Translations under genes and position numbers: made by a program | In this document: positions 2,851-58,526 of the stretch, piece after piece | Layout: each line of letters starts with the position of its first letter | Numbering within the stretch: position 1 is the first letter of the stretch | The notes under the pieces: generated by a model | Database searches by the model: none | Told to the model about the DNA's origin: nothing | What the model saw: only the letters and a program-made list of their open reading frames with translations | Virus record (IMG/VR): IMGVR_UViG_3300020576_005257 | Location: 160,001 to 224,000 of that record | Direction: 5' to 3' (one strand) | DNA from: a virus | Lineage: Duplodnaviria > Caudoviricetes | DNA: 64,000 nucleotides

Positions 2851-3993
2851 TTAACCAGTGTAAACTAATTGGGTCTTATTCAAATCAAAACTACCAGTTT
2901 CGTCTCTATACATTTTAACGAAACCTTGGACAGGTGGTTGATACTTACCATGTTGTAAGAATTGGTACTCTTGAGGCTTAGCCATGCAACCAGTATGAAT
3001 AAGCATTCTGCCTGTAGGAGTGTACTCCATAGAAAGCCTATGTACATGCCCCTGGAAGACCGCTCTAGGCGATTCAATCTTCAATACGTGATTCCATTGG
3101 GCAAGCCATGTATCAAGCCTCTTTACAGCATCATCACCACAGAAGCATTCAAAGTGACCAAAAAGACACTCATTCCAAATTCCAGCAAAATCAAGCTTGT
3201 AGTTTTCACCAAATTGGAGAGGTGGCTTAGTATCAGGAATCTCAAGTGACATGAACTCTACGTTATCAAGCCCTTGGGTTAACCAAACTAATGGGTGTAC
3301 AACCATAGGAAGCAAACCAGGTAAAAGATTCTGCATCTTTTTGATTGGCCTATTATCATGATTCCCAGTAATGATCTTAACACTACTATACTTCTTACAA
3401 AGCTCTTCAATAATAGCTCGACCAGTTGCTATCTCAGCCTGATAGGTCACATAGGCATTAGTCTGTCTATGGCTTGAAGCAGAAAGCATATCAAGTACGT
3501 CACCCATAATTACGAGTTCATCTGCGTCTGATCTAAGAAGATAGTCAAGACTTTCTGGGTGGTGGAAGGGGATATGGAAGTCTCCTGCCACATCAACAGA
3601 ACCATCACCTTTCTTTCTCTTATAGTTCTTATTGACTTCACCAATGGGTCCGATTAGTCTCTCCAAACCAGTTCTAGACATTTCAAGAAAACTGTCTGGT
3701 TGAATTACTTTTTGAATTGTATTGGCCTCACTGATTTGTTCAGGTACTTGTACTGTAGTCTTTTCAAGAACTACGCTATTGTTATGAATATAAGACTTCC
3801 AATTCTTCCAGAGCCTAAGCAAAGACCTAGAAGCCTCTATCTCAGAACCAAAGTCTGGAACCATATGTAAAACAAGGTCATAGTAACCTCTACTGGAGGA
3901 TTTTCTGACATAAAAGTCAGATGCGATTGCTGTGTTTATATTTTCTAGTTTAGCTAAATCTAGAAAAGAAACTGGGATGGTTATAGTTTTCAT
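2851..3993 (-). CDS. Calcineurin-like metallophosphoesterase
   Basis: GDFH, GDVLD, GNHD, GH and GHVH motifs in order. Confidence 0.9.
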   Translation of the reverse strand: MKTITIPVSFLDLAKLENINTAIASDFYVRKSSSRGYYDLVLHMVPDFGSEIEASRSLLRLWKNWKSYIHNNSVVLEKTTVQVPEQISEANTIQKVIQPDSFLEMSRTGLERLIGPIGEVNKNYKRKKGDGSVDVAGDFHIPFHHPESLDYLLRSDADELVIMGDVLDMLSASSHRQTNAYVTYQAEIATGRAIIEELCKKYSSVKIITGNHDNRPIKKMQNLLPGLLPMVVHPLVWLTQGLDNVEFMSLEIPDTKPPLQFGENYKLDFAGIWNECLFGHFECFCGDDAVKRLDTWLAQWNHVLKIESPRAVFQGHVHRLSMEYTPTGRMLIHTGCMAKPQEYQFLQHGKYQPPVQGFVKMYRDETGSFDLNKTQLVYTG

Positions 3994-4008: not shown

Positions 4009-7000
4009 TTATCTACGTAATTGTTTTTGTTTTTCGCGTTCCACTTCCGCTCGGCGGTCGTGGTTTAGCTGCATATTAATATCTATAACGTTATGAGATG
4101 TAGGTATGGTCTCATAGTTTATTAGAATATTGCCAAATTCGCCGCTACCAGCCAATTTATCAAGTTCTCTTTGGATGTTTTCTTTGGTTCTCTTGTTCAT
4201 TCTAGGTACTTCGACCCCCTCTGAGAAAACTTTAGCCTTAGCTAGTTTTCTTTTACTGGGTCTAGCAATCTTTATGTCTTCATGCTCAGTTGCTCTGAGT
4301 TTAATGTCATCAAGGTCGGTATCTCTTCGCCAGCCACCCCAATCAGATTTAGGTAAATTGTGGTGCTTGAAGTATTCAGTTAGATTGGGTTTAGTTGGAA
4401 GCTTATCTTCTTCAACACCTAAGAACTTGCCAAGTACCCGCTTCTCAGCATTGGGTAATAAGTCATAGTATTCATCTTTCTCTGCCTGAGTAGCAGTAGT
4501 AATTATAGATTCAGCAATTTGTCTATGTCTTCTAGGTAGTGTTGCCAAAGCTTCGTCAAGCGTACCATTTACGACATCAAAACCGTACATAGTTCGTCTT
4601 GCTTTGAATTCGGCGTCACTAGCTAACTTTTCAAACTGCTTAGCTTGTAAAGCAACTTGCTGATGTCCAGTTTTAACTTGACGTTCTCCATTCTTAGCTT
4701 TTAAAGCAGCTTCAGCTATGGTAGATTCTTTGACATAGGTAAGAATATCATAATACTCATCAAAATCGTTTCTTTTTCTAGTTCTTTTTGGTTTCCAAGT
4801 TTCACCAGTTAAAGTTTCATTTAACTCTTTTAATAGAGATAAAGACGCCCCAACTGCCCCAGCAACCATAGCTGCTTTACCTTTCATCTTCTTAGTTCTG
4901 AAAAAGATGCTTGCAACTAAAGCACTTTGAGCACCAGCAACAACTGGATTCTTACTAATTATTGAATTTACAGTGGGTACAACATAATTATCTTTCAAAT
5001 TCTTTAAGGAATATTCGTCAGTTCCGTAAACCTCACCTCTTTTATATTGTTCCAAAGCTGTACGTACACGTAAGAATTTGTTAGAAAACATATTATCACT
5101 GTGTAGAATAGTATCGGTTACACTGGTTCCTAATCCATCTCTTCCAAAAACTTGATTTGCTAATGGATTTCTAGATTTGTAGTCTTCATCTGCATATTCA
5201 GACTCAATCAGTTCATGATTAACGTCCCCAAAAATAGCTTCAAGTACAGTGTTCTTGGTGACATCAGGATTGAATTGCCCTTTAATAAGAGTCACAGAGG
5301 TCTTTTGACCTACATGAATACCATATTGAGCTAATAGGTCAGCAGGATCTTTATAAGCAAAAGCTTGTTGATCATATTTAACACCAGCTAACTTAAACTG
5401 ACCCATTTCAGTTAAAATATCCCCCTCTCCAGTAATAGCCTCAACAACTAAATCCCTAGTTTCAGTGGGAACATTTCTTTTAGGATAAAGATTATAATTC
5501 TCTGTTTTAGCTTTGGCAATTTCTAAAGCAATCTCAAATCTGCGTTGCTCCATACCACCAAACCCACCTTTCTCTTTGGCGAGTTGAACATACTTTCTAA
5601 ATTCACGAGATTCAGGAGCAGCTTTTGCTAATACCTCAATCCTATCAATAAGACCATAAGTTTCATAAGGACTAACTTCCTCATTGTCAATCATCTCCTG
5701 CACACGAGCCCTTGCTCCAGCTACACGATTAAATATAGCATCCATGCGTTTAGGATCATATTTATAGGTAGCTAACCTAACTTCATCAGGGTTATCTCGA
5801 TTAACATGGGCCAAATGGCCTACCTTAGTATCAGTAAGATACATATAATACATAAGTTGATCTATGTATTTTTCATTATCCTCATTGATATTTCCAGAAC
5901 CACGAGTCTTAATTTCAACAACTTCTAAGCCACTCTTACCTCTAACTAAAGTTTCAATAGTAGCAGAACCATTAATTTCATCATCGTAAGCAGCAATTTC
6001 AGCACCAACTAAGATACCTTGCTCCCTCATTTGTCTCATAATTCTCTTATGAGCAAAAGTTCCAAAAGCCATTCTTGTCTCAGAAGCTTCATCTGCCTCT
6101 GATCCAATAGGATCAAGGAACTTCAATACCATTTCATCTTCTGAAAGACCTACCATAGATCCTCTGATTTTTAATGGTTTCACAAATGGGTTAGCTCTTT
6201 CCATCGCGTCGCCTGGAAGGATTAACTCACCGTTAGAAAGCCTAGCATATGGGTCCCCCCGTCGAAACTTATTAGGCAACCAACTAGCTTGGTTGTTTTG
6301 TAGTGGGTTGAAAGCATCTGGATCTTGTCTTTCCTCAGGCATAAATCGTCTGAAGAATTCTCCATACATACCAGGAAAAACTTCACCCATTTTAGCGTTA
6401 TAGAACAAACGAGACTTAGAAAAAGAGACACCTGGGTCTTGAATCTGGAAAGCTTCGTGTTCGTTGCTACCATAAGCTGGTATTTGGTTTACAATACCAC
6501 TATAGATACCAGTAGGCCGAAGTAATTCATCCATTACCTCATGTACTTTATGTGTAAGTTTATGTTTGTGGTACTCATGTTTTGATGCATACTTGTTGTA
6601 CCCATAATTAAAAGCTCTACCATCTTCATCGCCAGGCTCGGCAGACTGTAATGCCTCTTCTAGGCTACCTCCACCTCCCCCATAACCAGAACCACTTCCC
6701 CCTGTGCCTGGGCCAGATCCACCAGGACCAGGCATACCATGCTTCTTATAGCCCCACAGATTAGTCATAGTTTGAATAACCTTACTCATTTTGGTATGGC
6801 TTTTCTCGTATGCGTAACCTACAGAAGGATGTTCATCCAGGTAAGATAACATCTCCTCCTCAGAAGCATAGGGCCTATCTTTTTGAGTTAAGTCTTCTTG
6901 CCAGTGAGGGTGGAAAAGAGCATTAAGAGGTGCGAGTGGATTGGTTATAGTGGGCAGGAAACTATAGTTAGGGTTAGATAGTTGAACATTTCTAGCCTCA

Positions 7001-10000
7001 GTCCAATGTGATTTAAGTCTTCTATAAAGATTAGGTCTGACTGATTCTACACTTCCACCATATGCTGGATTTCTTGATCCAATTAAAAAGCCACGACCCA
7101 TTCTGATTTGTTCGTTACCATATAACAAATCCTCCCTGGTTTCCGCTTCATCCATTGGATTGTAGTACATATCAGCACCTGGAAGGCTATATACTAAGTG
7201 CTTTAATGGGTTAGTAAGCCCAAAACGATCTCTAAATTTAGATGTACTTATTCTTGCATTCCCATAAACATTAGCTGTGAAATCATCTATGCCTTCTTGA
7301 TCTTTGTTATGTAAATCAGCGTTAATATTCTTATACGCTTCCATAGCAATATAAGCCGGAATAATCCGTTTAATCATTAAATTAGTATGTGCTCTACCAA
7401 AAGTAGCTTTATCTGTTTCTGAGATTCCTAATCCTGCTTGATCAAGAACATTAGCTGCACCATGAGAAAGAGCAGTAAGGCTGGTGCTCAAATACCCTTG
7501 AGCAGAATTTGCTGAAAAGAGTCCTTTAGCAAAGTCTACAGTACCAAAGCCTCTTCCTAATTGGGTTTTAAGATGGAAAGCCATGGCCTGAGTATAAGTT
7601 AACCCATTACCAATAATTAATGACCCCATAGATGGGGTAGCAGAGGGTAATACTGTATACCTGGCTACTGCTTCTTCTGGAGCTTCTGGAACAAATGAGG
7701 GTCGTCTGGCTCTAAAGCCACCTTCATCTAATTTATCATGTATACCTAAATTGTTTACTAGTCTGTTTATAACAGAGACACCTTGCTCTTCTTTGTAAAT
7801 GGAAGTAGCAACAAGCATGGTGTCAGACCTAACCCTTTCAGCTGCAATCATTTTAGCTACTGGGTCTTCCATATATCCCGCTAATCTTTCGTGGGAAGAG
7901 AAAGCTGTAACTAATTGACCTATGCTACCTTCTGAGAGAGATCCTTCATCTGGGTTAAAGTTCTTTAAAGCACCTTCAAACAAATAATTAAATTCAGAAT
8001 CAGAACTTACATTTAAATGTTTAGTAAAAATTCCTTTAATTTTGTTTGCGTTTTCTATTTGTGTAGGATCAATTAAAGTTCCCCTTTCTTTTAATAAGTT
8101 TAATGCTATATCTTGATCTAACCCAGTTGCCGCTTTAACCTCTGAGAATAATTCTGATTTAGCAGAAGCTCTGGTAAATTCTTCAATTAGTCCTCGTTGT
8201 AAGTCTTTTTGAATTTTAGATACAGCATCATCTCCAAAGACTTGTTCTTTGGTCGGGGGTGTTAATACTGAATTTAACTCTACCTTGTTCTGTGCGGGGG
8301 CACTAATATCATAAATTCTATTAGGACTTTCTATAAAATCAGATAAGGCTTTTTCTAGTGTGGAGTTTACTTGGTTGTTGGAAAGAGCCTCCAAATCCAT
8401 AGTACCTAAATGATCAGCCAAAGCTTCTGGATTATCAGAAAGCTCCATAAGTCTAATTAAATCCTCACTAAGAGGAATACCATCTTTTCTAGCTTTAGAA
8501 GCTAGCTTCTTTACAGTAGGGGATAAGTCATTAAAATCTAAGTTAGCCATACCCCCAATCATTCTTCTTTGAAGGTCTAGCTCTACATTAGGTGTAATTT
8601 TTCCAGTATTCTCTTTTAAAAACTGGGAGATAAGGGTTGGGTGTATTTGATCAGAAGTAACTGATGTAGCTGTAGGATCCACACCAAGAATCTTCCCAGC
8701 AAGACTGCCCATAATATTTTTCGGAACAAGTTTTAATTCCCCATCATTAACATTAAGATTGAATAATTCTGGTTGGAAGTGATGAAGTAAATTTTCCAGC
8801 ACAGTTTTACTTCCACCTTCTGGACGTTGTAAACTTTCCTTGGCAGCTTTTAGAAATCCTTTAGTTGATACTTGATCTGAGAAATCACTGAAAGCATTGT
8901 CTAATAAATTAGCCCTAGTTCCAGCCATCTCTTTTAATACAGTGCTTCTTTCATTGTTTAAGAAAATAAATCTAGAAGCTTGTTCAGCATTAACTCTGTC
9001 AACTGTAAAATCTGTACCTTGTCTCCCAAAACTAAAAATCTGTTCTCCAATAGATAAGCCAAACTCGTTATCATAGTTTAACCCCATCCTCTTAAGCTCA
9101 CCAAGCTTACTCATTTCTCCAAGAAATTTTACAGGAGTTTTATCAGGAGAATAGGCACCACCTAAAGTGAAGGGGATGTTAAATTTAATAGGTTGGAGAG
9201 GAAACTGTAATGCTTGTTTTGCCCTATTAACGAAAGTTCTTCTGCTGTTACGTGCGTGTACGAGAGATAAAACATCTCCATTTTTATCAACACCAAGACC
9301 ACTAAAACTCTTTAAGTAGGCTTCCCTTAACTCAGCATGCTGCTCTCCACCCAGTTCAATAAGATTACTTTCAATCTTTCCAAAGATTTCATCAGCAGTT
9401 TTCTTGTGCCCAGTATTTCTTAAATATTGATCTACTTTTTCCCGGTGGGACCCAGTTATTTCTTCAATTGTTAGTCCACGATGATTTTTATTATGCAACA
9501 TTCCTTGCAAATCTAAACCAGCTTTCTCACTAGCATTCATTTCTCTGGCATGTTTAGCTAATGCACCAAAGATAACATCCCTATTTTTTGATCCATTCTT
9601 ACCACCAAATAAATTCTTCTCAGTAGATACTTGTCTTCTCTTAGCAAGATCAATGGCATCATCCATACTTTGCTTTACAGAAGCCCTATGCTGTTCCAAT
9701 AAAACAGCAGGTTTGACGTTCTCAGTCATGTAATTGAATCTAACACCTTTAGTAGATTCCATGAAACGTTGCATGGTACTATCACTAAGGAGCTTCCCAG
9801 ACATATGTTCCACCTCACCAGAGAGGAATTCATGGAAAACATCAGTTAGATGGGGTGCTATTTTATCAAAATGTTCAAGACTATCTTCATGAACATTCTT
9901 CCGTAAAGACTCAGTTAGAGCTTCTCTACGAATGTCCCGCATAGCTCCACGAAGAAAACTTCTTCTTACTTGTGGAACACTGTCGGCAAAATAATTAAAA

Positions 10001-10239
10001 GTGTCTGAGAAAAGGGTTTTAGTATCGTGTACACCAACAATAGGACCTAAGATACGTCTTAATGTGCTGCTTTGATCACTTAAAGCATTAGCTGCGTTAG
10101 AACCCAAAGTTCTGGGGGCGAGATAAGCAACCGAGCCCAAACCAACAGCAGCAATACCAGCATATTTAGCCAATGCTGAAATTTTATCAGCAAAGCTATC
10201 ATCATGCTCTTTGTGGTATTGAGAATTGGATCCTAGCAT
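4009..10239 (-). CDS. Tape-measure-position giant virion protein with RecB/Cas4-like PD-(D/E)XK and SNase-like segments
   Basis: 2076 aa, directly after the tail chaperones. Motifs GTFAH..AE..VVEIKT..QLMYY and EGDILT..FKLAGVKYD. Confidence 0.75.
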   Translation of the reverse strand: MLGSNSQYHKEHDDSFADKISALAKYAGIAAVGLGSVAYLAPRTLGSNAANALSDQSSTLRRILGPIVGVHDTKTLFSDTFNYFADSVPQVRRSFLRGAMRDIRREALTESLRKNVHEDSLEHFDKIAPHLTDVFHEFLSGEVEHMSGKLLSDSTMQRFMESTKGVRFNYMTENVKPAVLLEQHRASVKQSMDDAIDLAKRRQVSTEKNLFGGKNGSKNRDVIFGALAKHAREMNASEKAGLDLQGMLHNKNHRGLTIEEITGSHREKVDQYLRNTGHKKTADEIFGKIESNLIELGGEQHAELREAYLKSFSGLGVDKNGDVLSLVHARNSRRTFVNRAKQALQFPLQPIKFNIPFTLGGAYSPDKTPVKFLGEMSKLGELKRMGLNYDNEFGLSIGEQIFSFGRQGTDFTVDRVNAEQASRFIFLNNERSTVLKEMAGTRANLLDNAFSDFSDQVSTKGFLKAAKESLQRPEGGSKTVLENLLHHFQPELFNLNVNDGELKLVPKNIMGSLAGKILGVDPTATSVTSDQIHPTLISQFLKENTGKITPNVELDLQRRMIGGMANLDFNDLSPTVKKLASKARKDGIPLSEDLIRLMELSDNPEALADHLGTMDLEALSNNQVNSTLEKALSDFIESPNRIYDISAPAQNKVELNSVLTPPTKEQVFGDDAVSKIQKDLQRGLIEEFTRASAKSELFSEVKAATGLDQDIALNLLKERGTLIDPTQIENANKIKGIFTKHLNVSSDSEFNYLFEGALKNFNPDEGSLSEGSIGQLVTAFSSHERLAGYMEDPVAKMIAAERVRSDTMLVATSIYKEEQGVSVINRLVNNLGIHDKLDEGGFRARRPSFVPEAPEEAVARYTVLPSATPSMGSLIIGNGLTYTQAMAFHLKTQLGRGFGTVDFAKGLFSANSAQGYLSTSLTALSHGAANVLDQAGLGISETDKATFGRAHTNLMIKRIIPAYIAMEAYKNINADLHNKDQEGIDDFTANVYGNARISTSKFRDRFGLTNPLKHLVYSLPGADMYYNPMDEAETREDLLYGNEQIRMGRGFLIGSRNPAYGGSVESVRPNLYRRLKSHWTEARNVQLSNPNYSFLPTITNPLAPLNALFHPHWQEDLTQKDRPYASEEEMLSYLDEHPSVGYAYEKSHTKMSKVIQTMTNLWGYKKHGMPGPGGSGPGTGGSGSGYGGGGGSLEEALQSAEPGDEDGRAFNYGYNKYASKHEYHKHKLTHKVHEVMDELLRPTGIYSGIVNQIPAYGSNEHEAFQIQDPGVSFSKSRLFYNAKMGEVFPGMYGEFFRRFMPEERQDPDAFNPLQNNQASWLPNKFRRGDPYARLSNGELILPGDAMERANPFVKPLKIRGSMVGLSEDEMVLKFLDPIGSEADEASETRMAFGTFAHKRIMRQMREQGILVGAEIAAYDDEINGSATIETLVRGKSGLEVVEIKTRGSGNINEDNEKYIDQLMYYMYLTDTKVGHLAHVNRDNPDEVRLATYKYDPKRMDAIFNRVAGARARVQEMIDNEEVSPYETYGLIDRIEVLAKAAPESREFRKYVQLAKEKGGFGGMEQRRFEIALEIAKAKTENYNLYPKRNVPTETRDLVVEAITGEGDILTEMGQFKLAGVKYDQQAFAYKDPADLLAQYGIHVGQKTSVTLIKGQFNPDVTKNTVLEAIFGDVNHELIESEYADEDYKSRNPLANQVFGRDGLGTSVTDTILHSDNMFSNKFLRVRTALEQYKRGEVYGTDEYSLKNLKDNYVVPTVNSIISKNPVVAGAQSALVASIFFRTKKMKGKAAMVAGAVGASLSLLKELNETLTGETWKPKRTRKRNDFDEYYDILTYVKESTIAEAALKAKNGERQVKTGHQQVALQAKQFEKLASDAEFKARRTMYGFDVVNGTLDEALATLPRRHRQIAESIITTATQAEKDEYYDLLPNAEKRVLGKFLGVEEDKLPTKPNLTEYFKHHNLPKSDWGGWRRDTDLDDIKLRATEHEDIKIARPSKRKLAKAKVFSEGVEVPRMNKRTKENIQRELDKLAGSGEFGNILINYETIPTSHNVIDINMQLNHDRRAEVEREKQKQLRR

Positions 10240-10817
10240 TAAAAGCCTCTTCTAGAATCGTAGCCCCCATTTTGAGCGTAAAAGACATCATCTCTTCCAC
10301 CTATATGCCCTTTAGCTTGGGCTGCTTCTAAGGCTTGACTCATTTGAGCATCAGGAGCATCTCCCACTGTAACAAAACCCTCTTCAACAGTTTTACCTGT
10401 CATATTTTCAAAGGTAATCTTGCCGACTATCAGACATTTAGCTCGATCTAGAGGATCACAGTTTCTTAGATAGGTTGGATTTAAACCTAATACAGCAATA
10501 CCTACTGCCTCATAAACCCCATCGGGATCTAATATCCAATTCTCAGCTTGGGTTAAAGTTAATTGATCTTCATCATAACCAGAAAGCTTTTTTATGTGAA
10601 AAAGCAGAGTTTGACAAGTGCCCTCTAAATCTACGTCGGGCTGGTAATTTTTAACACACTTCTTTAAGATAAATTCATCAATTTCTGTTTCTGTCTCTCT
10701 TGTTAAAGCAGCATTCCACTCACCCCAAGACAGACATCTAAAATGGTAAGACTTAGGCTTCATATCTGGGCCTTTGAGAGTTACCTCAAACCATCTAAAA
10801 TCTCTTTCAAAATCCAT
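10239..10817 (-). CDS. Putative tail assembly chaperone
   Basis: Between tube genes and tape measure; FRCLSW..KCV..LSGY resembles the repeats of the upstream gene. Confidence 0.6.
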   Translation of the reverse strand: MDFERDFRWFEVTLKGPDMKPKSYHFRCLSWGEWNAALTRETETEIDEFILKKCVKNYQPDVDLEGTCQTLLFHIKKLSGYDEDQLTLTQAENWILDPDGVYEAVGIAVLGLNPTYLRNCDPLDRAKCLIVGKITFENMTGKTVEEGFVTVGDAPDAQMSQALEAAQAKGHIGGRDDVFYAQNGGYDSRRGF

Positions 10818-42472: not shown

Positions 42473-42549
42473 TGGAGGACCAAGAGGGAATCGAACCCCC
42501 GAAAATCACCAGGTTGCAACTGGTTGCCTTACCATTTGGCTATTGGTCC
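42473..42549 (-). tRNA. tRNA-Cys(GCA)
   Basis: GGACCAA/TTGGTCC acceptor, ACCAG-TTGCAAC-CTGGT, U73, encoded CCA. Confidence 0.9.
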
Positions 42550-42557
42550 CATTAAAA

Positions 42558-42643
42558 TGGAGGAAGACCGAGGAATCGAACCCCAACCCTTGTAGGTCGT
42601 TCTGTTTTCAAGACAGCCCCCAGCCCAGCCAGGGTGATCTTCC
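42558..42643 (-). tRNA. tRNA-Ser(TGA), atypical
   Basis: Loop CTTGAAA, long variable arm, GGTTCGATTCC, encoded CCA. Confidence 0.8.
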
Positions 42644-42651
42644 TTAAATCA

Positions 42652-43153
42652 TGGTGATAGCTGTAGGATTCGAACCTACGCGCTTTTTACAGACTAAGAT
42701 TCCCAAAAATCTAAAGAACCAACAATGAGTTTATATTTCTCTTTATCTTTTCCTAAAGATATTGCAGTAGAACCACATATTGATGAAGGTAATAAATATG
42801 TCTCCCCTTCATTTGTTAGAACAAAAACAAAATCTACAAATGATGGATCGAATTTCTTAATGGTAGATCTAGATTTATTTCCACCACAGACTTTTAAACA
42901 AACTACAAAAATATCGTATCTAGGTTTTGATGTTGTAGTTTTTACTTGAATTTTTTTTAATCCATTCAAGTCAACTACTAAGTCATAATCTTGGCTATCT
43001 GTTAAGGGAATACAGACAGTCAAACCCTTAGAAGTAAAATAACTAATCGCACTACCAAGACCGACATCCCCTTGTTTTTTACTGTTTTGTTGGGTTAGCA
43101 TATTAGATAGTGTTGTCAAAGCCTCGTGCAATCGTCCACTCTGCCAAACTATC
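42652..43153 (-). tRNA. Split class-II-like tRNA with a ~410-nt insert; identity uncertain
   Basis: 5' part 43153-43115 (GATAGTT, D arm, CGAGG-CTTTGAC); 3' part 42701-42652 (T arm, AGCTATC-A-CCA); acceptor strands pair. Confidence 0.7.
42694..43101 (-). CDS. PD-(D/E)XK homing-type endonuclease (I-Ssp6803I-like) inside the tRNA
   Basis: KQGDVG..YDLVVD..KIQVKT..VDFVFV. Confidence 0.85.
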   Translation of the reverse strand: MLTQQNSKKQGDVGLGSAISYFTSKGLTVCIPLTDSQDYDLVVDLNGLKKIQVKTTTSKPRYDIFVVCLKVCGGNKSRSTIKKFDPSFVDFVFVLTNEGETYLLPSSICGSTAISLGKDKEKYKLIVGSLDFWES

Positions 43154-43165
43154 ACTTAAAATTAC

Positions 43166-43813
43166 TTAAACAGTGTCGTGTGTTCTACCAATATTTGCAG
43201 TCACAAGATCCTGATCTACAGCATCCACTTCCTCTGAGTTATCCAAATCTGCATACCTTCCAGCAGTACTCCAAGTAGGATCACTAGGAGTAGCACCAAG
43301 TACACTGATTGCATAATCTACGTCAGCAGCATCAACTACACCATCACCATTACAATCACCAGTATAGATAGTTGTAGTCACAGGTGTAGCAGTTCCAGTT
43401 TTAGTAAAAACCACATTTCTAACTACTCGATTCAATCTTGGCCTACCAGCTTTAATTAGAACAGAATAAGTGCCCACAGGCAAACCAGTAATTGAAGAAG
43501 AATAAACTTCACCCATATCAACTGAAACATTTTTAGTATTACAAAGCTTACCTTGTTTCCAGAATTCAAAAGTTACAGTAATCGGGCTTTGTACGGCAGC
43601 ATCAGCAAAAGTGAGTGTACCACCAAATGTTTTAGCTGGTGTTAGTTGTCCTGTAGTACTAAAAGTAATAGAGTCAGCAGGTAGTAATAGTTCAGGAAGC
43701 TGTGTATCCCCTTCCCCAAACGTATCAAATGAACGTCCAAGTGTTACATCATAAGGAATACCATCATCACTGATAATAAGGCCTGGCGTAATCATACCAT
43801 CTTGATTAATCAT
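43166..43813 (-). CDS. Dockerin-like (paired Ca-binding loop) protein
   Basis: GDCNGDGVVDAAD and ADLDNSEEVDAVD. Confidence 0.8.
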   Translation of the reverse strand: MINQDGMITPGLIISDDGIPYDVTLGRSFDTFGEGDTQLPELLLPADSITFSTTGQLTPAKTFGGTLTFADAAVQSPITVTFEFWKQGKLCNTKNVSVDMGEVYSSSITGLPVGTYSVLIKAGRPRLNRVVRNVVFTKTGTATPVTTTIYTGDCNGDGVVDAADVDYAISVLGATPSDPTWSTAGRYADLDNSEEVDAVDQDLVTANIGRTHDTV

Positions 43814-58451: not shown

Positions 58452-58526
58452 CAGGAGATAGCTCAGCGGTAGAGCAGCTCATTTCAATCGAGCGGGTCGG
58501 TGATTCGAATTCATCTCTCCTGACCA
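58452..58526 (+). tRNA. tRNA with TCA anticodon (candidate UGA suppressor)
   Basis: CAGGAGA/TCTCCTG, GCTC/GAGC D arm, loop TTTCAAT, short variable loop, ACCA. Confidence 0.75.

Follow-up and report, generated by a model that had tools for sequence, protein, structure and literature searches.

Can a tRNA still be made from a tRNA gene that is interrupted at its anticodon loop by a homing endonuclease gene, when the interruption consists almost entirely of coding sequence? The question is raised by a locus on the minus strand of a phage record of 234,927 bp (G+C 36%, estimated completeness 95%). Bases 160001–224000 of this record make up the window, i.e. the whole stretch of 64,000 nucleotides that was analyzed, and the positions given below are those of the window unless they are marked as genome positions. 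The locus heads a small tRNA array, in which an intact tRNA-Ser(UGA) (42558–42643, minus strand) and an intact tRNA-Cys(GCA) (42473–42549, minus strand) were identified by both ARAGORN and Rfam.

The outer parts of a resident class II tRNA gene

The 5′ part of the interrupted gene is located at 43120..43153 on the minus strand. It was read directly from the sequence and corresponds to the 5′ exon proposed by ARAGORN in intron mode. It comprises the 7-nt acceptor strand (43153–43147), U8-G9, the D arm (43144–43128), A26, the 5′ strand of the anticodon stem (CGAGG, 43126–43122), and C32-U33 (43121–43120); the resident tRNA sequence thus ends at about U33. Comparison with class II tRNAs identified the D arm as class-II-like. 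The 3′ part, also read directly, is located at 42652..42679 on the same strand and contains a perfect T arm (42679–42663), an acceptor strand (42662–42656) that pairs with 43153–43147, A73 (42655), and the CCA end (42654–42652), which is encoded in most tRNAs of this phage. The two acceptor strands form seven of seven base pairs, one of them G.U, and two further pairs are possible beyond them (7–9 bp).

The initial annotation had described matched, complementary tRNA halves around an insert at the anticodon. The acceptor pairing and the arms bear out the match, but the halves are incomplete. No proper complement of CGAGG, i.e. no 3′ strand of the anticodon stem, is present anywhere in the 3′ region, and the same region contains no credible long variable arm. 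In an alignment with a class II tRNA, the missing stretch corresponds to the entire variable arm and two bases of the 3′ stem strand. By similarity, the isotype of the resident tRNA resolves to "class II" only, with a tRNA-Ser from locus L002 as best match; the resident tRNA was probably a tRNA-Tyr.

Exact-pattern scans of IMG/VR, run separately with either half and with the neighboring tRNA-Ser, gave no match at all, and the sole match in a scan of one metagenome was due to chance and lay in GC-rich bacterial DNA without a tRNA. Relatives of the flanking 215-aa protein were likewise absent from IMG/VR, and no insert-free allele was thus found. Since no allele free of the endonuclease was available for comparison, we infer the target and the original tRNA from the present arrangement; the order of events at the locus is inferred as well.

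An intact endonuclease gene of the I-Ssp6803I family

The insert contains an intact gene for a PD-(D/E)XK homing endonuclease of 135 aa (42694..43101, minus strand; ATG at 43101, TAG at 42696–42694). The deduced product matched PF11645 (PD-(D/E)XK_5 / I-Ssp6803I family) with 55.9 bits versus a cut-off of 26.1 (E = 6e-15), the I-Ssp6803I structure 2OST (E = 2e-4), and phrog_5018, and 367 homologs were retrieved from the databases. The residues D35, D40, D44, Q52, and K54, which are invariant in the family alignment (A2) and align with the D...D...QVK stretch of 2OST, are all retained, and the enzyme is predicted to be active. According to the same alignment, family homology ends near position 42721; the usual stop codon has been lost, and the last nine codons run on as a C-terminal extension into a tRNA-like piece described below. 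The initial assignment of the gene to the I-Ssp6803I family is thus confirmed by the PF11645 and 2OST matches, as is its location at the anticodon loop of a tRNA gene by the direct reading of the matched outer parts. Its start codon indeed lies 13 nt past the heptamer that had been taken for that loop.

The same arrangement was found, base for base, in a second strain (L022), an independent JGI contig with 96.7% identity over 5.8 kb; it is therefore not an assembly artifact. The 195 differences between the two strains over the 5.8 kb are very unevenly spread. None of them falls into the 660 bp from 42532 to 43191, a tract that spans the cassette, the tRNA parts, the tRNA-Ser, and the first 18 nt of the tRNA-Cys, whereas the adjoining 220 bp upstream contain 13 of them. 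The tract could result from gene conversion and fits, without proving it, recent homing with co-conversion. The comparison is limited to these two copies of the locus, which are identical.

Ribozyme and splicing analyses

The initial annotation had pointed out that the insert leaves no room for a group I ribozyme, and our analysis agrees with this view. Only 13 nt precede the ATG and approximately 30 nt follow the conserved C-terminus, and about 200 nt are needed for a group I core. A cmscan search with the Rfam models, including RF00028, gave no match to a group I core at E ≤ 10 on either 3 kb or 531 nt of sequence around the locus. As a positive control, RF00028 scored 96 bits on an intron located elsewhere in the phage genome, in the tRNA-Arg(UCU) gene (genome 29534–29809, outside the window). 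The latter intron is 202 nt long and contains no ORF. According to a review of 2014, every phage intron known at that time was located in a protein-coding gene (PMC3984707), and a group I intron in a phage tRNA gene may be unusual. The 502-nt stretch of the interrupted gene is not unusually structured (fold z-score of −1.76, with 5 of 100 shuffled sequences being as stable). Of the features that characterize a group I intron (a core, a tRNA restored on removal, and enough RNA), none of the three was found.

In intron mode, ARAGORN called a tRNA-Gln(UUG) with a 406-nt intron at this locus. The underlying model pairs CGAGG with TTTTG, involving three G.U pairs, and contains a 24-nt variable arm that barely pairs. 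Every 5′ cut (24–59 nt) was therefore combined in silico with every 3′ cut (28–109 nt), and the 2,952 resulting products were submitted to ARAGORN at rising thresholds, which yielded 252, 21, and 0 calls at 100, 110, and 115%, respectively. Control sets, in which the inner sequence was shuffled 30 times with the acceptor, D, and T arms kept, matched or exceeded these numbers, and calls at 115% were obtained with several of them. Because shuffled inner sequence does as well or better, the ARAGORN call rests on good outer arms and chance; given the three G.U pairs in the stem and the poor variable arm, it was dropped. A canonical tRNA cannot be obtained from this locus by any excision, trans-splicing, or two-piece assembly.

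These results bear directly on the idea of a ribozyme-less intron or split tRNA, in which phage or host enzymes, e.g. a phage RNA ligase, would cut out the parts and join them in trans to give a working tRNA. The matched ends retain their CCA, as would be expected for such a tRNA, and the phage encodes a single RNA ligase domain of the PF09414 type (E = 2e-12; genome 6075–6440, locus L021), approximately 500 bp upstream of a normal tRNA-Gln(UUG) gene. Nevertheless, rejoining is highly improbable. The anticodon stem or variable arm is no better than chance in any join, and neither RtcB nor a tRNA splicing endonuclease (PF01974) is encoded in the phage genome. Moreover, the apparent TTG anticodon is part of a motif of the cassette (see below), and a tRNA-Gln(UUG) would only duplicate the one that the phage already has. 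The intron removed in trans and the two-piece tRNA, both considered in the initial annotation, thus find no support: no join surpassed the shuffled controls, and no rejoining of the flanks provides both an anticodon stem and a variable arm. An archaeal-type (bulge-helix-bulge) intron or split tRNA is not indicated either, as the anticodon stem cannot form and both enzymes are missing from the phage. A plain pseudogene, the outcome that the initial annotation had named beforehand as speaking against its own readings, fits best.

A gene-start motif at the left junction

The supposed anticodon loop overlaps a promoter- or translation-start-like motif, GACAACACTAT (43107..43117, minus strand), that forms the left end of the cassette. 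The 10-mer starting at 43116 occurs only twice in the genome, each time between a tRNA break and the start of a homing endonuclease gene; the other copy separates the 5′ half of a broken tRNA-Leu gene from the start of an HNH gene. For its 7-mer core, an ORF-opening ATG was found within 30 nt in 12 of 44 occurrences, compared with a mean of 7% and a maximum of 14% for permuted 7-mers. The core is also present at the junctions of two more tRNA-splitting HNH cassettes, as well as a short distance upstream of ordinary gene starts, e.g. those of a 2,683-aa ORF and of a sugar dehydratase-like gene that follows right after the tRNA-Cys. In the form (G)ACAACACTA, the motif was detected at 43117–43107 and 42474–42467 of the window and at about ten other sites of the genome, where it precedes, by 0–22 nt, the start codons of several genes as well as four endonuclease cassettes. 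Judged by this placement and by its enrichment in front of ORF-opening ATGs, it is probably a promoter or start signal and perhaps serves a phage-encoded RNA polymerase. The motif belongs to the cassette and to the gene signals of the phage rather than to the tRNA, and the "TTG anticodon" is therefore a junction artifact. The Gln-like TTG on a body of the long-variable-arm type, which had appeared odd initially, finds its explanation in this overlap with a motif that also precedes other genes and HNH cassettes.

A tRNA-like piece, probably a decayed inner tRNA, at the right junction

The 3′ end of the endonuclease gene runs into what is probably the decayed 5′ portion of an inner, cassette-borne tRNA (42682..42720, minus strand). 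This piece consists of an acceptor-like strand, a D arm with the stem AGAT/ATCT and a GG-containing loop, and the Tyr-type loop CTGTAAA at 42692–42686; the heptamer could be a chance occurrence (roughly 1 in 100). The Rfam tRNA model aligned end to end with 42655–42720 at 22.1 bits (E = 0.039 on 531 nt), a score that is below the gathering score because the anticodon stem and the variable arm are truncated. The inner piece begins at 42720, directly where family homology ends (42721), which matches the position at which the ORFs of relatives end and the abutting tRNAs begin.

Related loci in other phages

Among the 367 homologs, 23 other loci with endonucleases of 39–72% identity were read, comprising 19 from IMG/VR, L023, L025, L026, and the second strain L022. 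In all informative loci, the endonuclease gene is free-standing inside a phage tRNA array. The same applies to the locus studied here, where the gene forms its own ORF among tRNA genes, outside any intron or intein, as is the case for SegB. In 14 of 18 distinct loci, the stop codon falls between 17 nt inside the following tRNA and 6 nt before its 5′ end (−17 to +6 nt). This tRNA is frequently a tRNA-Tyr with the loop CTGTAAA; in the nearest clade (L023, L025, L005, L006, and L004), it is a tRNA-Tyr(GUA), or Tyr-like in L004, with this very loop. Apart from L022, which has the same arrangement, none of the related loci read has matched outer tRNA halves, and no group I intron was found in the 15 related loci that were scanned with Rfam. 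A homologous relic of a 5′ half upstream of the endonuclease gene was considered for L025, L023, and L005 and was rejected, as the local alignments were no better than those of shuffled sequences.

An alternative origin of the locus is a group I intron that carried the endonuclease gene in a tRNA gene, as in Synechocystis tRNA-fMet, and the core of which was later deleted, with the tRNA being killed in the process. The endonuclease family and the kind of site, an anticodon loop, are the same as for I-Ssp6803I, and the phage does hold a group I intron in its tRNA-Arg. This origin is nevertheless improbable in view of the sequences at and around the gene. No trace of any group I element is left at the locus, and none of the 15 relatives scanned has such an intron. 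Furthermore, the 13 nt in front of the ATG are taken up by the gene-start motif of the phage, and the sequence past the conserved C-terminus resembles the 5′ end of a tRNA, not the helices of an intron.

The related loci also allowed the evaluation of a third possibility, also considered in the initial annotation, in which the matched ends are kept as a frame for RNA processing or stability. The acceptor stem and T arm would then form across the 450-nt insert and, with the CCA, present a substrate for RNase P and 3′-end processing, bracketing and protecting the mRNA of the endonuclease. The end complementarity of 7–9 bp, the perfect T arm, and the encoded CCA are in line with this proposal, as is the zero divergence over 660 bp between the two strains. 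In addition, the relatives are always located between tRNAs, and their mRNAs must derive from tRNA precursor transcripts. On the other hand, the 5′ acceptor strand is predicted to pair locally with the region before the ATG in the minimum-energy fold, not with the 3′ end, and the related loci other than L022 have no matched halves. Recent homing would account for the tract of zero divergence equally well, as would the low divergence that other segments of the alignment display locally. Taken together, a frame of this kind is unlikely. Somewhat less likely still is the stronger version that the ends have been kept functional, with a tRNA-like top half that makes the mRNA an RNase P/3′-end substrate and shields it from exonucleases, possibly as a general property of the endonuclease-split tRNAs of this phage. 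The pristine state of the outer parts (T loop, D arm, end complementarity, and CCA) could mean selection rather than a recent event. If true, the locus would provide a natural "tRNA scaffold" for a mobile gene.

Several further observations were made at the related loci. The endonuclease stop codon lies inside the next tRNA, or at most 6 nt from its 5′ end, in L002, L004, L005, L025, L026, and others (ORF end near locus position 3378). RNase P cleavage of such precursors would remove or abut the stop codon, and tRNA processing and translation of the endonuclease may thus compete. Rfam tRNA matches of 111–125 nt were obtained at L011 (4074–4196), L012 (3774–3890), L015 (4098–4222), L016 (4022–4132), and L020 (3983–4094), which are phage contigs from one metagenome; they represent tRNA genes with inserts of approximately 40–50 nt in arrays that also hold the endonuclease family. 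The phage tRNA array of L005 gave two sub-threshold matches to the bacterial class A RNase P RNA (59.8 bits at 5855–6123 and 36.4 bits at 5369–5453; gathering score, 100). In L006, a strong match to the RAGATH-34 RNA (119.8 bits, 411–518) was found about 2.5 kb upstream of the endonuclease homolog.

HNH cassettes in other tRNA genes of the same phage

Four other tRNA genes of the phage are split at the anticodon by HNH cassettes; in two of these, the HNH stop codon is directly followed by an intact replacement tRNA. In the cassette at genome 651–1569, an intact tRNA-Ile(UAU) and an antisense HNH gene lie between outer halves in which all stems can still be formed. At genome 9731–10345, the order is a 5′ half of tRNA-Leu, the motif, an HNH gene, an intact tRNA-Leu(UAA) located 5 nt past the stop codon, and an outer 3′ remnant with CCA. 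The other two HNH cassettes split tRNA genes at genome 26349–27138 and 29810–30389. The outer halves at the HNH-split loci keep their CCA. The endonuclease locus is the fifth insertion into a tRNA gene in one phage. It differs from the other four in its nuclease family, and none of them is decayed to the same extent.

The tRNA complement of the phage further includes tRNAs of the opal (anticodon UCA) and amber (anticodon CUA) suppressor types, encoded at 58452–58526 of the window and at genome 21181–21260. Genome-wide recoding of stop codons, considered as an explanation of these suppressor tRNAs and of the TAG stop, found no support, as ORFs of ≥100 aa in the standard code already account for 88.6% of the genome.

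Discussion

In our view, the locus is likely to have arisen when a cassette of a free-standing endonuclease gene and a replacement tRNA was inserted into a resident class II tRNA gene and an internal deletion subsequently left a dead tRNA. A phage relative of I-Ssp6803I, travelling with its own copy of tRNA-Tyr, would have cut the resident gene in the anticodon loop, and the cassette, including the promoter-like motif of the phage itself, would have been copied into the cut site. The tRNA that immediately follows the endonuclease gene in other phages would serve as a replacement for the target or as a cleavage-resistant copy of it. In the same repair event, or in a later illegitimate repair or deletion, the inner tRNA may have been fused, just past its anticodon loop, to the T arm and 3′ acceptor strand of the resident gene. 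This fusion would have eliminated the variable arm together with the 3′ strand of the anticodon stem, leaving the replacement tRNA as a stump of acceptor strand, D arm, and CTGTAAA loop. No working tRNA-Tyr is encoded in the phage genome, and the event thus appears to have cost the phage its tRNA-Tyr. In general, phages can do without their tRNAs. With the 3′ stem strand, half of a presumed palindromic target would also have disappeared, rendering the locus immune to re-cutting; the target of I-Ssp6803I comprises 23 bp and is pseudo-palindromic (PMC3384342).

A ribozyme-free tRNA intron in a bacterial virus was a tempting reading of this locus, but it is wrong and has now been removed. The case also contains a warning for annotation, as intron-aware tRNA finders will report broken genes of this kind as tRNAs with an intron. 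Taken together, the locus and the HNH cassettes suggest that phage tRNA genes are a hot target for cassettes that combine an endonuclease with a replacement tRNA. Phage tRNA-Tyr has been described as a counter-defense gene (PMC13096335), which makes the targeting by such cassettes relevant to the turnover of phage tRNA arrays.

Among the closest parallels are the two HNH cassettes with replacement tRNAs of the same phage (genome 651–1569 and 9731–10345). They likewise occupy an anticodon loop, are enclosed by matched outer halves with CCA, and have the order endonuclease, then tRNA; the junction motif is common to the locus described here, the cassette at 9731–10345 (not that at 651–1569), and two further HNH cassettes. 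They differ in the endonuclease family and in their intact inner tRNA, whereas here the inner tRNA is joined to the resident 3′ half, both of them in truncated form. An intron-less endonuclease gene inside a host gene, with two pieces left, is also represented by mobE, which Friedrich et al. reportedly described in 2007 as splitting nrdA in Aeromonas phage Aeh1. The two protein pieces are said to still cooperate in that system, whereas the RNA pieces of the present locus are devoid of essential parts. In archaea, split tRNAs and bulge-helix-bulge introns are protein-dependent, ribozyme-free interruptions, some of which hold homing endonuclease genes. In contrast to these, the phage locus has no anticodon stem from which the motif could be built, and the phage has no splicing endonuclease. 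Moreover, group I introns were not found in archaeal genomes according to a 2014 review (PMC3984707), whereas one is present in this phage.

SegB, a GIY-YIG endonuclease of T4/T6-like phages, is similar in being free-standing in a phage tRNA array and in adjoining a tRNA-Tyr (PMC13096335). In T6, recombination between short homologies of the tRNA-Tyr and the end of the endonuclease gene reshapes the locus (PMC13096335). However, SegB has another nuclease fold and is located between intact tRNA genes, whereas the cassette described here lies inside a broken one.

I-Ssp6803I itself, encoded in the group I intron of Synechocystis tRNA-fMet, resembles the phage enzyme in its PF11645 domain, the similarity to 2OST, and the location in the anticodon loop of a tRNA gene. 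That its target is located in the anticodon region of the tRNA gene is stated by Bonocora and Shub (2001) in their title (cited in PMC3984707), and its close homologs are generally cyanobacterial (PMC3384342). In contrast, the gene described here is phage-borne, it is not surrounded by a ribozyme, no tRNA can be formed from its flanks, and its relatives occur as free-standing genes within tRNA arrays. The family, described as an intron passenger mainly of cyanobacteria, thus has a large phage branch of free-standing genes, which are welded to the 5′ ends of tRNAs, often tRNA-Tyr, and can also insert into the anticodon loop of a resident tRNA. What is new here is the lifestyle of the I-Ssp6803I family in phages, not a new splicing mechanism.
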